A DNA stretch of 41,733 bases, taken from the NCBI GenBank assembly GCA_934365155.1, contig CAKRMZ010000009.1, forward strand, positions 1 through 41,733, read 5' to 3'. The notes under the pieces were generated by a model. The model saw nothing but the letters and a program-made list of their open reading frames with translations, was not told the origin of the DNA and ran no database searches. The position numbers and the translations under genes are program-made. Positions within the stretch are counted from its first letter, which is position 1. Every line of letters starts with the position of its first letter. Origin of the DNA: an uncultured Eubacteriales bacterium (GTDB lineage: Bacteria > Bacillota > Clostridia > Oscillospirales > CAG-272). Positions 24,371 to 27,730 of the stretch are shown here, in pieces.

Positions 24371-24436
24371 AAAAAGACGCAGAGAATGACCGCAGAAATT
24401 GCGGTCAGCACTGCGTCTTTGCGTCTTGCCGATCGG
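24371..24436 (-). terminator. Terminator-like hairpin element A (AGACGC-repeat family), between tetR(1) and the DUF998 gene
   Basis: aaagacgcag...tgaccgc-agaaatt-gcggtca...ctgcgtcttt is followed (plus strand) by gcgtcttgc. In the minus-sense RNA it is a stem followed by UUUUU, right before the RBS. Confidence 0.55.
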
Positions 24437-24570
24437 TAACTTCAACCTTAAAAATTCTGCGCATTGATGATGCACTCTTGCTTTCACTTCAGACAAAAGA
24501 GTAAAAATAGCGTTCTTTGCAGAAATCGCAGTTGCGCTTTTGCATCGCGAACCGAGCAAAGGATCCATTT

Positions 24571-25230
24571 TCATCCAAGCTGCTCATGGCTTTCCGCTCT
24601 TTTTAAACCGTTACCATGAACCATGCGAAAAAAGAGGCGTACATGCCGACTGAGTTTTTCCAAGCATTCATTTTCTCTTTCCGGCTGACGGTCACATATG
24701 CCGATAAGAGTCAGCACCGGTGCAACATACATCATAGACAAAGTGTCCGGGTCCTCTGCCGCAATTTCACCGGCAGTACTCAAAGCACGGAAGATATCGG
24801 CGTGATAGTTGATTATGCGCTCCACATATCGCTTGGAGTACAGTGCCGCCAACTTCGGCGAACGGAATTGCTCAATTGTCATCATGCGGCGAAACCGGCC
24901 GATGGTTTCATTGTGCAGGGAATACTCAAAGATTTGACGCACCTTTTCAAAGAGGGCATCCTCAGTGATCTCCGTAAAAACGGGAATATCTTTTTTTACA
25001 TTCTGCACGTGAATATCGATCTTGTCGGTATCCACCTCATATTGCGCTGCCGTAGACTCCACAATGGCGTCAAAAATTGCTTGCTTACTCGGAAAGTGGT
25101 TGTAAAGCGAAGGCGCTTTTATACCCACTGTCTTTGCGATTTCTCCCACACTGACGGAATCATATCCCTGCTCCGAAAACAGCTCCAAAGCTTTATCTAA
25201 AATCCTTTGTTTTGTATCTTCCTGTCTCAT
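24571..25230 (-). CDS. TetR/AcrR-family transcriptional regulator (1)
   Basis: ..RILDKALELFSEQGYDSVSVGEIAKTVGIKAPSLYNHFPSKQAIF.. is a TetR helix-turn-helix. Confidence 0.85.
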   Translation of the reverse strand: MRQEDTKQRILDKALELFSEQGYDSVSVGEIAKTVGIKAPSLYNHFPSKQAIFDAIVESTAAQYEVDTDKIDIHVQNVKKDIPVFTEITEDALFEKVRQIFEYSLHNETIGRFRRMMTIEQFRSPKLAALYSKRYVERIINYHADIFRALSTAGEIAAEDPDTLSMMYVAPVLTLIGICDRQPERENECLEKLSRHVRLFFRMVHGNGLKRAESHEQLG

Positions 25231-25240
25231 CGGTATCCTC

Positions 25241-25260
25241 GCTAACTAATATTCGTTAGT
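25241..25260. promoter_or_regulatory. Imperfect 20-bp palindrome upstream of tetR(1) (candidate operator)
   Basis: gctaactaat|attcgttagt has 8 of 10 arm positions complementary and lies 11 nt upstream of the tetR(1) start codon. Confidence 0.4.
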
Positions 25261-25287
25261 TATATTATAATCATTTTTTGCGGAATG

Positions 25288-25917
25288 TCAAGAGGGCATG
25301 CCTGCGATGTTTTTTTCGTGCTCAGATTTTCTGATCCAATTGTCCAGAAATTGCATTTGCTCCTCTGTATGGAACCAATGCTCCGCGCCGGGCATAACAG
25401 TTAATTTCGCATTATGCTGCTTTGCAAATGCGGAGATTGTTTCTATGGATGTCAGATTATCGTACTCTCCATAGAGAATAGAGGTTGGGACATCCCATAA
25501 GATCGGGTGCTTGCGCACATAGCAAAGGTAATACCAAGACAACGTTTCACCAAAATCTGTGGATATTTCAAACTTTTTCTCAAGATCTTCTTCGGTCACG
25601 TTTGACCATTGCATCATATTGCAAATCAGTTTTTCCATATTTACAACCGGAGAGATAAAATAGGCTTTGTCAATCAGTGCTTTATTCAGCGAGGATAACG
25701 AAAAAAATGCACCGATGCTGTTTGCGATCAAAGTGAGGTGTTTGCCGTTTTTTCGCTTTTCAAGAAAGAATGAGAAAAATTCTTCCTTGGCATCCCAAGG
25801 CGTTTGTGAACGGTAATCGAACCCGACAACTTCATCATTCGGAAAAAGCGTTCGGTAATGCTCAGCCTCTTGTGCAGTGCCTCCCTTTCCGTGGACATAT
25901 ATGGTCAGATTTTTCAT
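25288..25917 (-). CDS. Alpha/beta hydrolase (esterase/lipase-like)
   Basis: MKNLTIYVHGKGGTAQEAEHY...LIANSIGAFFSLSS shows a GxSxG-type nucleophile elbow. An RBS is present. The ORF track extends to 26001. Confidence 0.65.
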   Translation of the reverse strand: MKNLTIYVHGKGGTAQEAEHYRTLFPNDEVVGFDYRSQTPWDAKEEFFSFFLEKRKNGKHLTLIANSIGAFFSLSSLNKALIDKAYFISPVVNMEKLICNMMQWSNVTEEDLEKKFEISTDFGETLSWYYLCYVRKHPILWDVPTSILYGEYDNLTSIETISAFAKQHNAKLTVMPGAEHWFHTEEQMQFLDNWIRKSEHEKNIAGMPS

Positions 25918-26083
25918 TTTACCTTTTTCTGCATAGCATTCATCTGCCGCAAGCATATGATGAATCCTCCTTATAATGTTGTAATTATTATTTAATTTCA
26001 AAATTGCGGGATTTTGCCGTCAAAATGCTTCGCCTTTTCCGACAGCGGTCCTTTTGCTCCCATAGTAAAGGGATGCTACTGCT

Positions 26084-26464
26084 TCAAATGGAGAGCAGAC
26101 GCATTCCGGGCTTCAAATGCAGGAATGTCATCATGTCTTTTGTCAGCTTGATTTCACCCGATTCTGAAATTGTAGTCCAGCAGTACGCGCGTCCCTTGTA
26201 GGGAAGGAATGTGCCTACCGGGGCTTTATAACGCAGAAGGGCCGGGGTTTCGGTCAGAATGTGCCCAAGCCTCGACGACAGAAACAGTCCCTGCCGTGTT
26301 ACGCAGAAGCCACCCGTAATCTTGCTTCCGGTAAAAAGATATACCCTTCCTTCCGAAGCAATATGATATTCGTTTACAGCCTGCGACGGAAACTGTAGAC
26401 ATCCGTCGGGACGAATCATCGCCTCTCCGAAAATAAATTTTCCACCCTTGTTCAATTGCGGCAT
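26084..26464 (-). CDS. Hypothetical protein (126 aa, no recognisable family)
   Basis: Start MPQLNKGGKFIFGEAM... follows an aaaagga RBS 18 nt after the stop of the upstream gene. The ORF track extends to 26560. Confidence 0.4.
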   Translation of the reverse strand: MPQLNKGGKFIFGEAMIRPDGCLQFPSQAVNEYHIASEGRVYLFTGSKITGGFCVTRQGLFLSSRLGHILTETPALLRYKAPVGTFLPYKGRAYCWTTISESGEIKLTKDMMTFLHLKPGMRLLSI

Positions 26465-26484
26465 AGCTTTGCGTCCTTTTGAAA

Positions 26485-26940
26485 TTAGAGAATGGCCCGT
26501 GCGATTTCCACAGTCACGATTTTCATCAGTGTGCCGCCGCACATTACATAGAACCAGCATTCGCGTGCTTGCTGGGATTTTGTAATCGGAGTGGCGATCG
26601 CAGCGACAATAATCATCACTGCGCCGATGCAGCCGATAACGGTAGGAATACTGACGAGAGAGAACAGGACCGGCGCACAGCTCCCGTCGATCGCATGTTG
26701 GATCGTCTTATCTAAGTTATCTCGTGCTGCGGCGAAGCAGCAGATAACAAGACCGAAAAACAGCAAAATTACGGTCCTGCGTCCCCAATATTGAATGTTT
26801 GTACGGTTATACACGGAGTATCCGATAAATCCCAACAGGGCCACAATCATAAATGTCGTGATTGCAGTCACGGTGTTTCCGAAATAGAGCTTTATTCTTC
26901 TGTTGCTTCCTTTCCGTACTGAATAATAACGATTTTGCAT
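26485..26940 (-). CDS. Hypothetical membrane protein (151 aa, 4 TM)
   Basis: The hydrophobic segments are ..ITTFMIVALLGFIGYSVY.., ..VILLFFGLVICCFAAA.., ..VLFSLVSIPTVIGCIGAVMIIVAAIA... The start is uncertain because it overlaps the 3' end of the upstream zinc-ribbon gene by 49 nt. Confidence 0.4.
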   Translation of the reverse strand: MQNRYYSVRKGSNRRIKLYFGNTVTAITTFMIVALLGFIGYSVYNRTNIQYWGRRTVILLFFGLVICCFAAARDNLDKTIQHAIDGSCAPVLFSLVSIPTVIGCIGAVMIIVAAIATPITKSQQARECWFYVMCGGTLMKIVTVEIARAIL

Positions 26941-27128
26941 GTATCGCAGCAGTGGGCATCTACTCTTGCCCTATGACCGGCATTCAACTCCGTAATTTTC
27001 ACAAAGCCGATCGAATGTTTTGCATTTTCAAAAGCACCCGGCACTTCGTTCGCAAAGCTGAAAGCTCCGTCTTTTGTGCTGAACAAATAGCCTTTTCTCA
27101 TTTCTTTTCCGCATTTTGGGCACATCAT
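26892..27128 (-). CDS. Small zinc-ribbon protein (78 aa)
   Basis: MMCPKCGKEMRKGYL...HCCDTCKIVIIQY has a CPxCG ... CxxC arrangement. Confidence 0.45.
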   Translation of the reverse strand: MMCPKCGKEMRKGYLFSTKDGAFSFANEVPGAFENAKHSIGFVKITELNAGHRARVDAHCCDTCKIVIIQYGKEATEE

Positions 27129-27146
27129 AATAGAATTCTCCGTTTC

Positions 27147-27653
27147 TTATTTTTGAGAACTGTACCACTCGAATACAGCATTTAAGTTTTCAAGCTTAAC
27201 ACGTTCGCCGCTATATAACAGCATATTCAGCATGTCATCCTCTTCCGGTGTGCGGTCTTTTTTGGCGGCAAGGCTTTTGCCTGCTGTTTTTATCATCAGT
27301 TTCATCATGAGGCGGTAGATTCCGTGTAGCTTTTTTACATCAAAATTGCCTTGCAGGGTGAATACCGGGATGTTCTCCGGAACAGCCGTCTTTTTTCGTA
27401 CAACGTTTATTTGTGTTCCGGTTTGACTCATGCCGACACCGCAGACGGCACATACCTTATAGCGCTTGACGATATTTGAATATCCCTGAACGGTCCCTGC
27501 CATAATCCACCCGAGATAGATAAGCTCCGAACCGGTGGGGAGCGCTTTTTTTGCTTCTGTAAATGAATAAGAGGGAAGACCGGTTTTGAGTGCCAACAAT
27601 TTTGCATATTGCTCTGTGCTGCCGGTGTTAGTGGTGTAAACAATTGCTTTCAT
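27147..27653 (-). CDS. Flavodoxin-like fold protein
   Basis: MKAIVYTTNTGSTEQYAKLLALKTGLPSYSF... is a flavodoxin-type FMN-binding N-terminus. The RBS ggggaaagga precedes it. The ORF track extends to a GTG at 27710, inside the terminator hairpin. Confidence 0.6.
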   Translation of the reverse strand: MKAIVYTTNTGSTEQYAKLLALKTGLPSYSFTEAKKALPTGSELIYLGWIMAGTVQGYSNIVKRYKVCAVCGVGMSQTGTQINVVRKKTAVPENIPVFTLQGNFDVKKLHGIYRLMMKLMIKTAGKSLAAKKDRTPEEDDMLNMLLYSGERVKLENLNAVFEWYSSQK

Positions 27654-27671
27654 AAAGATTTCCTTTCCCCA

Positions 27672-27730
27672 AAAAAAGACGCAGTGTTGACCGTTTTTCA
27701 CGATTCGCACTGCGTCTTAGCGTCTGGCTG
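27672..27730 (-). terminator. Terminator-like hairpin element B (paralog of element A)
   Basis: aagacgcagtg...cactgcgtctt is followed (plus strand) by agcgtctggc. In the minus sense it is a stem followed by UUUUUUU, then the flavodoxin RBS. Confidence 0.55.

Follow-up and report, generated by a model that had tools for sequence, protein, structure and literature searches.

A widespread, undescribed control element made of two AGACGC repeats and a transcription terminator

Two copies of the element in one window

Ordinary terminators share no primary sequence. Why, then, do two hairpins on the minus strand of the 41,733-nucleotide stretch analysed here (the window) carry the same tandem AGACGC motif? 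We found that both are copies of a widespread, undescribed control element that consists of two AGACGC repeats and a transcription terminator. The string AGACGC-N-AAGACGCAG occurs exactly twice in the window, against 0.09 occurrences expected by chance. When AGACGCNAAGACGCAG was searched with up to two mismatches, the only matches in the window were 24411-24426(-) and 27710-27725(-); shuffled controls gave an expectation of 0.09 matches, and two matches were reached in 1 of 100 shuffles. Both motif copies open a strong hairpin with a U-run directly ahead of the RBS of the next gene, and 10-17 nt separate the end of the element from the next start codon. Each has a G+C-rich stem-loop and then a U-run on the transcribed strand, and both are thus predicted intrinsic terminators. 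The pair of hairpins with a shared tandem motif that an earlier note had described was therefore confirmed by the motif search against shuffles and by folding.

Element B (27671..27730, minus strand) consists of GCC, the repeats, the hairpin and the U-run. Its two AGACGC repeats (27725-27720 and 27717-27712) are separated by TA, the 5' arm (27718-27708) pairs with the 3' arm (27686-27676), and the U-run is at 27677-27671. The fold has a dG of -27.2 kcal/mol (z -4.6), and the covariance model R1 matched 27668-27731 with 60.7 bits (E 2e-14). Element A (24371..24430, minus strand) has its repeats at 24426-24421 and 24418-24413 with the spacer AA, followed by a two-tier hairpin in which 24420-24411 pairs with 24382-24373 and an inner stem is formed by 24407-24400 and 24394-24387; the U-run is at 24375-24371. 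It folds with a dG of -29.9 kcal/mol (z -3.0), and R1 matched 24366-24432 with 67.2 bits (E 3e-16). No Rfam 15 family matched the element at or above the gathering threshold in the window and ten representative loci covering all element classes. A sub-threshold match to bglG-cis-reg (20 bits vs 80 needed) was dismissed as noise. A literature search found nothing on an AGACGC-repeat terminator element.

Both copies are located inside operons that begin with a TetR-family regulator, and all genes named here are on the minus strand. In module B, a promoter with a 12/12 match to TTGACA-17-TATAAT (28534..28585) is overlapped and then trailed by two GTAACCG-N-CGGTTAC-type palindromes, the putative TetR_B operators. 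The regulator (27882..28514; PF00440, E 2.2e-16) is followed by an intact Cys_rich_KTR gene from the ORF list that encodes a 67-aa zinc ribbon (27698..27901; PF14205, E 1.6e-27) and whose start overlaps the end of tetR_B. The flavodoxin-like cargo gene (27147..27653) starts 17 nt past the U-run and precedes genes for a DUF6487 protein (26892-27128) and a membrane protein (26485-26940). In module A, the promoter (25241..25291; TTGACA-16-TATAAT, 12/12 match) is followed by an imperfect palindrome, CTAAC-N-AATATT-N-GTTAG, as the putative TetR_A operator. Its regulator is at 24571..25230 (PF00440, E 4.4e-18), and the cargo gene, for a DUF998 membrane protein (23722..24357; PF06197, E 3.5e-13), starts 13 nt past the U-run. 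Among 80 loci, the element is followed by flavodoxin-like cargo in 26 and by DUF998 cargo in 18. Between the TetR promoter and the cargo genes, no promoter-like site was found in either module, and thus the cargo needs read-through.

The last codons of the intact KTR gene of module B, for P-D-A-K-T-Q-C, are the AGACGC-repeat motif itself, and its stop codon TGA (27700-27698) is inside the loop region of the element B hairpin. The earlier note had placed the hairpins downstream of a TetR/KTR module. KTR-derived sequence does lie upstream of both, but the repeats are the 3'-terminal codons of the KTR frame and not simply downstream of it, an overlap that the note had overlooked. This holds for the ORF of copy B, while copy A sits behind a KTR pseudogene (24405..24587, minus strand) that was delimited by alignment to seven DUF998-type KTR genes and left a tblastn remnant at 24451-24570. 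Its lesions include a zinc-ligand Cys changed to Arg, KTR changed to KAQ, a Cys changed to a stop (TGC to TGA), a 9-nt deletion, a 1-nt deletion and a 1-nt insertion. Element A is near consensus and intact although the KTR gene before it is dead; an intact KTR gene, that of module B, is 3.3 kb away.

Constraint on the nucleotides and on the hairpin

Across 80 genomic loci, the pattern of substitutions indicates that selection on the motif acts on the nucleotides and not on the peptide. The motif string is read as ...QPDAKTQC* in 42 copies, as ...ARR* (+1 frame) in 14 and as ...QPDA* in four, and at locus L080 it is located past the stop. Among 57 distinct ORFs, the motif codons are almost fixed (GAC 55/56, AAG 43/43, ACG 55/56, CAG 57/57, TGC 42/42), with a third-position entropy of 0-0.13 bits; the third position of the Ala codon, which is the N of the motif, is the only free site in it (1.28 bits). 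Elsewhere in the KTR ORFs, invariant residues use their codons freely (0.8-1.8 bits). The two half-sites are 1, 2 or 3 nt apart among copies and change in concert (for example, AGTCGC/AGTCGC), and we regard this combination as a probable sign of an RNA-like operator. They are flanked by GCC and AG(T/A)GC. A 20-nt stretch upstream of or overlapping the stem is conserved across frames and contexts, and therefore the element is more than a plain intrinsic terminator.

Some copies stand free of KTR ORFs. Two are in untranslated leaders of ~130 nt (L075:1786 and L056:152), one is behind a different ORF (L075:5723), and phage copies lie between tail-completion and tail genes, with the upstream stop 5' of the entire motif. 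Thus, a position at the end of a KTR ORF is not universal to the element. It is very improbable that these are ordinary terminators behind a conserved protein C-terminus, alike because KTR paralogues carried their terminators along. Both window copies do come after KTR-derived sequence, and the PF14205 model takes in the PDAKTQ tail. However, the string is kept whichever of three reading frames it falls in, and also outside ORFs, and synonymous sites are frozen only within the motif. Modules A and B, whose KTR genes belong to long-diverged subfamilies, share ~60% nucleotide identity over the KTR ORF and are nearly identical over the motif. The tail is also predicted to be disordered, with low confidence in an AF2 model whose remainder is a 4-stranded zinc ribbon. 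Plain terminators with a peptide tail are thus contradicted by the multi-frame reading, the frozen codons, and the free-standing and phage copies.

The hairpin is conserved as well. A hairpin with a U-run is present in 76 of the 81 family copies (16-22 bp, dG -22 to -37 kcal/mol, 5-8 U), and its 5' arm begins within or directly after repeat 2. Pairing is maintained in 91.8% of cells, compared with 27-51% in slid controls. Eight pairs show double changes (for example, UA in 22 and CG in 19), and ~10% are G.U wobbles; these compensatory and G.U changes fit a structure in the sense RNA. Matches of the covariance model on the antisense strand were far weaker. Together with the nucleotide-level constraint, a covarying hairpin at more than 75 KTR loci bears out the earlier proposal that a shared primary sequence marks a composite regulatory element. 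Repeat 2 adjoins the stem without overlapping it in copies of the SR and phage types, and occlusion of the terminator is plausible there, not obligatory.

Since the KTR stop is nearly always within or adjoining the element, a terminating ribosome might contribute. In the extreme case, the KTR ORF would be a long leader, and a ribosome at its stop would melt the 5' arm and suppress termination, so that the cargo would be transcribed only while KTR is translated. Of 79 KTR-linked copies, 78 do have the end of translation in the motif or shortly behind it (+8, +9, +21, +24 or +27 from the motif start), a ribosome terminating at those stops would cover the 5' arm, and in copy B the stop codon is inside the hairpin. 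Nevertheless, we consider such coupling quite improbable as the whole explanation. It accounts neither for the two half-sites nor for a frozen primary sequence in place of conserved pairing alone. Moreover, the element is kept at L075:1786, L056:152 and L080 and in the phage intergenic copies, none of which has an ORF running into it, and at copy A, where the KTR frame is broken ~100 nt upstream. No alternative antiterminator helix was identified in the element.

Linkage to KTR genes

Relatives do conserve the element, which is present at more than 75 KTR loci and on contigs of phages and ICEs. Every copy is at a gene boundary, alongside a terminator and in the direction of transcription; nearly every one is KTR-linked, and all copies at the 80 loci have the orientation of the linked KTR gene. 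The earlier note had offered a REP/BIME-like repeat family as one option. A self-spreading intergenic repeat of the REP/BIME or MITE type would suit an element that is short, hairpin-bearing, and found in many genomes and mobile elements. Yet the 41.7 kb of the window hold only two copies, both in the same functional position, target-site duplications are absent, and so are terminal inverted repeats beyond the terminator stem. The cargo type also tracks the KTR subclade, which argues for vertical association and not insertion. Across the window and the 80 loci, the copy number, the uniform co-orientation and the KTR linkage thus do not support a dispersed repeat of the REP/BIME type, and self-spreading of any such kind is scarcely credible.

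Species-representative genomes have PF14205 at 575 loci or more, and many contigs from phages and ICEs carry it too. KTR linkage was seen in three very different contexts, namely chromosomal TetR operons, ICE-like elements and phage late regions, and KTR genes and the motif co-occur even when they are kilobases apart. In phage group 1, the sequence upstream is long enough for 17 elements, and for 16 of them a KTR gene on the same strand lies 4.3-5.9 kb upstream; this gene is itself trailed by a variant site and a terminator. Because these phages are related, the co-occurrence may represent few independent events. The KTR encoded immediately upstream is likely to be the trans-acting partner of the element, to judge from this linkage.

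Another binder is nonetheless conceivable, with KTR a mere frequent neighbour: a host RNA-binding protein, an RNase or processing factor, RNA polymerase or a Nus factor, or a protein of duplex DNA acting as a roadblock or at a recombination site. KTR is a domain of unknown function, and fifteen contigs of phage group 2 have the motif and terminator, yet a search of their available 4-13 kb, also with a broadened HMM, detected no KTR. For L142, no KTR was found in 8.4 kb of upstream sequence. In these cases the binder might be host-encoded or different. As a general account, however, a binder other than KTR seems unlikely given the strong adjacency or linkage in all three contexts and the constant orientation with transcription. 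Furthermore, a phased duplex-DNA site would fit poorly with the variable half-site spacing, and the G.U pairs mark the hairpin as a structure of the sense RNA. The earlier suggestion of an attenuator bound by a common RNA- or DNA-binding protein is thus supported by conservation and covariation, with KTR as the candidate binder.

A proposed antitermination switch and its relatives

The existence of the element is well supported. We infer further that KTR is the binder, that RNA is its target and that antitermination is the direction of control. We give about even chances to the model in which each copy is a cis-acting RNA attenuator and KTR binds the repeats on the RNA and blocks the adjacent terminator. 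The element would combine a single-stranded operator of two AGACGC half-sites with an intrinsic terminator, and the second half-site overlaps the 5' arm of the terminator or lies directly next to it. A transcript would begin at the TetR-controlled promoter, pass tetR and KTR, and halt at the terminator by default. The KTR zinc ribbon, made from a gene immediately before the element or from one elsewhere, in cis or trans, would bind the repeats on the nascent RNA; the predicted KTR-Zn target is GCCAGACGCUAAGACGCAGUGC, recognised through its AGACGC half-sites. Bound KTR would keep the 5' arm unpaired, and RNA polymerase would read into the cargo (flavodoxin-like, DUF998, DUF6487 and others). The PDAKTQC "conserved C-terminus" of the family would then be an operator read by the ribosome and not a functional peptide.

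KTR might instead bind the repeats with another outcome, such as more termination or insulation, negative autoregulation, stabilisation of the tetR-KTR 3' end, or Com-like translational control of the cargo. Com does work on translation and not termination, and sites adjoining hairpins can stabilise as well as disrupt them. We find these outcomes distinctly unlikely: the hairpins are already strong terminators that need no helper, the cargo RBS is outside the hairpin and not sequestered, and a purely negative factor would leave cargo without its own promoter silent.

If antitermination by KTR is correct, it accounts for the gating of cargo genes by TetR-KTR operons in gut Clostridia and for terminator control within the late operons of some Firmicute phages. 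Tentatively, and with slightly less than even confidence, we extend it to Cys_rich_KTR as a large class of sequence-specific RNA-binding antiterminators. Each would be built on a zinc ribbon of ~45 aa, with an RNA operator overprinted on its C-terminal peptide, and would read a tandem AGACGC operator that is joined to an intrinsic terminator. Such a portable "protein plus terminator-switch" module might serve as a second gate behind TetR in detoxification-type operons of gut Clostridia, act at the ends of ICEs, and time head versus tail genes in phages. This proposes a concrete function for a widespread domain of unknown function, PF14205, and defines a compact cis-regulatory RNA motif absent from Rfam. 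If this is confirmed, a minimal zinc-ribbon protein would join the short list of sequence-specific bacterial antiterminators, and synthetic biology would gain an orthogonal protein/RNA switch of very small size. The case carries a warning, too: what a Pfam model shows as a "conserved C-terminal motif" is really a signal at nucleotide level.

By analogy, the logic of the KTR element resembles that of Com and HutP. Com of phage Mu, a CCCC zinc finger of 62 aa whose C-terminal tail is disordered, is encoded directly ahead of the gene that it controls. On the mRNA of its own operon it recognises two short repeats, spaced by 2-3 nt and adjoining a regulatory hairpin, and it activates the gene that follows (PMC6483171). 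KTR is of equal size, combines a zinc ribbon with a predicted disordered tail, and has its two-repeat site where its own gene ends. In contrast, at the com-mom translation inhibition structure Com opens a hairpin that conceals the start codon of mom and so acts on translation, while the KTR-linked hairpin is an intrinsic terminator with a U-run and leaves the RBS outside. The target sequences differ (GAGNNCC for Com, AGACGC for the KTR element), and so do the hosts: Com is found in Proteobacteria and Mu-like phages, KTR in Clostridia/Bacillota and their phages and ICEs. Sequence similarity between KTR and Com is marginal: hhalign gave a probability of 30% (E 5.5e-4) over the two CxxC knuckles only, and KTR matched PHROG 6417 "translational regulator" weakly (E 1e-4). 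KTR had no PF10122 match, and no Com was among its Foldseek viral matches.

HutP (Bacillus hut operon; UAG) and TRAP (trp operon; GAG/UAG) bind short repeats with variable spacers on nascent RNA, at sites beside or overlapping a terminator or antiterminator, and binding settles read-through. Like KTR, HutP is encoded just ahead of the terminator, and its gene opens the operon under its control. The operator geometry is also that of HutP, TRAP and LicT, with conserved repeats that overlap or abut the 5' arm of the terminator and the putative binder, KTR, encoded at the same locus. HutP, a hexamer, and TRAP, an 11-mer ring, have folds unrelated to the KTR zinc ribbon. Both need small-molecule ligands, whereas in KTR modules ligand sensing would fall to the upstream TetR, and the KTR element has only two half-sites, or up to four if AGAGCC-like flanks are counted. 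The RAT sites of BglG, LicT and SacY overlap the terminator 5' arm and prevent the terminator when bound, as the KTR element would in our model. Unlike it, RAT is itself a hairpin and is bound by a CAT domain dimer, and these proteins carry PTS regulation domains.

Leader-peptide attenuators resemble KTR loci in that an ORF ends at or inside a terminator hairpin ahead of the regulated gene. The KTR "leader", however, is a conserved 60-aa folded zinc-ribbon protein, and the element also occurs without an incoming ORF. Processive antitermination, by which phages and ICEs read through internal terminators, is known from lambda N/nut and Q, Tn916 canT and pLS20 conAn, and phage copies of the KTR element are inside a late morphogenesis operon. 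Of these, canT is a cis-acting RNA of ~450 nt without a protein partner (PMC11658703). In all four systems RNA polymerase is modified, and the effect extends to whatever terminator lies downstream. Each KTR-type terminator, in contrast, has its own adjacent operator, and thus control would be local and site-specific.

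Two copies of the element and their modules

Elements A (24371-24430, minus strand) and B (27671-27730, minus strand) each carry a pair of AGACGC repeats. The 16-nt sequence AGACGCNAAGACGCAG, allowing up to two mismatches, matches the window only at 24411-24426 and 27710-27725 on the minus strand, against a chance expectation of 0.09 in shuffled sequence. In the RNA sense the hairpins have a dG of -29.9 kcal/mol (z -3.0) in element A and -27.2 kcal/mol (z -4.6) in element B. A U-run follows each, and the RBS and ATG of the next gene are 10-17 nt beyond each element. Pattern search and folding agree with the earlier note, which had described two motif-sharing hairpins with U-runs before an RBS. 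That description of the motif and hairpin was accurate, but it overlooked that the AGACGC repeats overlap the reading frame of KTR (Cys_rich_KTR, PF14205), a zinc-ribbon protein. Written as RNA, the putative operator formed by the tandem AGACGC half-sites is GCCAGACGCUAAGACGCAGUGC.

KTR B is intact and encodes 67 amino acids (27698-27901, minus strand; PF14205, E = 1.6e-27). Both AGACGC repeats of element B are its codons P-D-A-K-T-Q, and its TGA stop codon (27700-27698) is inside the hairpin. Comparison with seven orthologous genes revealed a KTR pseudogene 5' of element A (24405-24587, minus strand). Its lesions are a change of a zinc-ligand cysteine to arginine, KTR changed to KAQ, a 9-nt deletion, a cysteine codon changed to a stop codon, and two 1-nt indels. 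Element A is near consensus despite the decayed KTR upstream of it. In an AlphaFold model of KTR, the zinc-ribbon core is confident and the tail is of low confidence over exactly the motif residues.

Modules A and B have the same order of promoter/operator, tetR, KTR, element, and cargo, the cargo being a DUF998 gene in module A and a flavodoxin-like gene in module B. Each has a 12/12 sigma-70 promoter with its own palindromic operator, and no promoter-like site was found between the tetR promoter and the cargo in either module. We rejected the motif as a TetR operator, since each promoter has a distinct palindrome of its own as operator and the motif is the same with different TetRs. In both modules the KTR start codon falls within the final ~17-20 nt of tetR (27882-27901 and 24571-24587, minus strand), and this overlap suggests translational coupling of tetR and KTR.

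A third TetR module (28575-30414, minus strand) has neither a KTR gene nor an AGACGC element, and it is a possible natural 'no-KTR' comparison. On the minus strand, it contains a perfect TTGACA-17-TATAAT promoter (30414-30386) with ATAACAT-N-ATGTTAT-type palindromes alongside, a TetR gene (29734-30339), a gene for a 156-aa membrane protein (29267-29737), and an ICMT/PEMT-like methyltransferase gene (28575-29207). An S10-Clostridia ribosomal protein leader (1873-1954) heads a long run of plus-strand ORFs in the 1-19300 region, a tRNA is at 19237-19309, and the ORF at 23124-23714, directly downstream of the DUF998 cargo gene, resembles a ClpP protease by eye. Judging from these neighbors, therefore, the TetR-KTR modules are chromosomal and on no obvious mobile element.

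Constraint on the motif and the hairpin

With one genome taken per species, a protein-guided scan gave at least 575 KTR loci, 80 of which were fetched. CCAGACGC-N-AAGACGCAG was present within four substitutions in 79 of 82 copies, and two further copies have a 1-nt spacer insertion. The motif is read as ...QPDAKTQC* with the stop at +21 in 42 copies, as ...ARR* in the +1 frame with the stop at +8 in 14, and as ...QPDA* with the stop at +9 in four. In one copy (locus L080) it is wholly 3' of the stop. Among 57 distinct in-frame ORFs, the motif codons are GAC (55/56), AAG (43/43), ACG (55/56), CAG (57/57), and TGC (42/42), and the third position of the Ala codon, which is the N of the motif, is the sole free one (1.28 bits). 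Outside the motif, the invariant Cys, Pro, Lys, Thr, Arg, Phe, and Glu residues have free synonymous usage, with a third-position entropy of 0.8-1.8 bits. Shared ancestry cannot explain the frozen motif codons, because both codon sets were compared within the same sequences. The reading frames and the codon comparison place the constraint on the nucleotides of the motif and not on the peptide.

Of 81 copies, 76 have a hairpin that ends at a U-run. The 5' arm of this hairpin begins inside repeat 2 (+8 to +14) in the main class and straight after repeat 2 (+16/+17) in the 'SR' class. A plain MAFFT alignment with RNAalifold recovered only part of the helix, and the two-tier helix from single-sequence folds was scored instead. 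When 54 distinct elements are aligned, 91.8% of the cells of this 17-bp helix pair, compared with 27-51% in controls whose 3' partner was shifted by 1-3 columns. Double changes occur at eight pairs (e.g. column 30:47, UA in 22 and CG in 19). Being part of the sequence-constrained operator, the outer 5' arm is nearly invariant. G.U pairs make up roughly a tenth of the helix cells. On the opposite strand they would become A.C mismatches, so the fold is an RNA-sense one, and the antisense strand has a far lower covariance model score. The pairing data show the hairpin to be a conserved, RNA-sense, terminator-like fold. We also considered a recombination site (integron attC-like or other), programmed frameshifting, and a DNA cruciform, and rejected them on three grounds: a slippery heptamer is absent, cargo type follows the KTR subclade, and the G.U pairs indicate an RNA-sense fold.

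Copies outside the KTR gene and linkage to KTR

The covariance model search that the earlier note had proposed found A and B and nothing more in the window, and extra copies in several of the fetched loci, all co-oriented and most after a second KTR gene. Three extra copies are not after a KTR gene. Two of them (L075:1786 and L056:152) are in ~130-nt untranslated leaders, 3' of the promoter/operator and 5' of the RBS, and the third (L075:5723) is after a non-KTR ORF. Both leaders contain a conserved 22-codon mini-ORF (L075:1690-1760, MLVVKSSSASYRKSRISYHCFS; L056:58-125, MMIVKKSFAPYPKNRTSYDDFS), which starts a few nt past the -10 box and ends ~60 nt before the element. It may encode a leader peptide or be there by chance. 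Five loci (L061, L063, L068, L069, and L077) have a third AAGACGCAG repeat ~60 nt past the KTR stop and read CCAGACGCAAAGACGCAG-GAGCCTAATTGACTGT-AAGACGCAGAGCCGATAA, with the terminator stem abutting the third repeat. A more divergent second KTR with its own element is ~290 nt upstream, and thus these loci have tandem KTR genes.

An independent scan of viral and MGE contigs for the motif alone found at least 120 stretches. There are 40 SR-type elements, which read ...EPDAKTQSR* (KTR is adjacent in 29 and within 1.25 kb in 7 more), 41 elements in phage group 1, 15 in phage group 2, and ~19 chance matches in high-GC DNA. The phage-group elements are intergenic, directly 3' of the stop codons of unrelated structural genes, and consist of T-AGAGCC-AGACGC-NN-AGACGC-AGAGCC, a short hairpin, and a U-run. 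Two rival explanations, plain paralogy as the cause of the likeness of A and B and the REP-like repeat suggested in the earlier note, are contradicted by the reading-frame, codon, covariance model, free-standing-copy, and phage-copy data.

In phage and SR-type elements (e.g. L108:5106-5156, L078:3159-3232), AGAGCC is on both sides of the AGACGC pair, so that four AGA(G/C)(C/G)C hexamers stand in a row, and a TAG stop is often directly before the phage block. The 3' AGAGCC is the 5' arm of the terminator, and the 5' AGAGCC may be an alternative partner for the same 3' arm. Downstream of many SR-type KTR genes, within ~40-60 nt, is CCCACCAAATAAAAAAAAC(G/A)GT, a junction that is A-rich and includes a short inverted repeat. 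In L141, L194, L197, and L061-L069 it is 3' of the SR-type terminator. This junction resembles an end or attachment site of an integrative element, in which case KTR would be the final gene there.

The element of phage group 1 separates a tail-completion gene from the gene after it. A same-strand KTR homolog is 4.3-5.9 kb upstream in 16 of the 17 elements with enough upstream sequence, which are not 16 independent events because these phages are related. This KTR directly precedes the scaffold and major head genes, and after it come a variant operator (AGACGC-C-AGACGC; in three phages AGTCGC-C-AGTCGC), a hairpin, and a U-run. Between the KTR-adjacent terminator and the head scaffolding gene, L108:1119-1275 matches Rfam RAGATH-21 (83.8 bits) and GP20-b (39.4 bits), and thus the phage KTR is located at a junction in the late operon that is dense in structured regulatory RNA.

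Over the whole data set, the spacer between half-sites is 2 nt in 173 cases, 1 nt in 15, and 3 nt in 2, and mixed half-sites are essentially absent. This spacing variation and the concerted half-site change fit a single-stranded RNA read by identical protein units better than a phased duplex DNA. Element A, with its dead KTR, is 3.3 kb from an intact KTR gene, and its being kept there is what a trans-acting factor predicts. A rival explanation is a binder other than KTR. In phage group 2 and L142, no KTR was found in the 4-13 kb at hand, even with a broadened HMM, and these cases count against exclusive KTR dependence, as does the relatedness of the group 1 phages.

Proposed mechanism and known systems

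From the element, its terminator-like fold, the nucleotide constraint, and the co-occurrence with KTR, we infer that KTR is the binder, RNA the target, and antitermination the outcome. By default, the strong terminator would end the tetR-KTR transcript. Accumulated KTR would bind the tandem AGACGC operator on the nascent RNA, the 5' arm of the terminator, overlapping or abutting the KTR-bound site, would be unable to pair, and RNA polymerase would then read into the cargo. KTR would thus form a second, protein-dosage-dependent gate behind the TetR repressor, and in phages it would gate internal terminators in the late operon. Ribosome-mediated coupling and an opposite polarity of the KTR effect are rivals to KTR-dependent antitermination. 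The cis-regulatory element is real and conserved and apparently undescribed, and its function can be inferred with moderate confidence, which gives a plausible role to KTR, a domain of unknown function.

Rfam 15, at gathering and permissive thresholds, gave nothing over the element in any element class, and NCBIfam has no model for KTR and no name for KTR or the cargo. The searchable literature contained no description of KTR, PF14205, AGACGC with a terminator, or zinc-ribbon antiterminators, and KTR appears there only as an annotation label.

The system would be one of protein-controlled intrinsic terminators. HutP, TRAP, and LicT use repeats or a site overlapping a terminator. Their logic is like that of the element, but their folds are unrelated to KTR. 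Processive systems (lambda N and Q, Tn916 canT) act on any downstream terminator, whereas here each terminator has its own operator; a check of Tn916 canT showed it to be a different system (PMC11658703).

In a search of KTR against PDB sequences nothing was found, and Foldseek against viral and PDB libraries returned uncharacterized phage 'cysteine-rich proteins' and generic zinc ribbons only, with no Com. KTR matched Com weakly in hhalign (probability 30%) and PHROG 6417 'translational regulator' weakly, and these matches do not establish it as a Com family member. The closest analog of KTR and its element, both in logic and in protein architecture, is phage Mu Com, a CCCC zinc finger of 62 aa whose tail is disordered. 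Com binds the two-repeat GAGNNCC-N2-3-GAGNNCC, which adjoins a regulatory hairpin in its own com-mom mRNA (PMC6483171). Com acts on translation, whereas the hairpin of the AGACGC element has every feature of a terminator.
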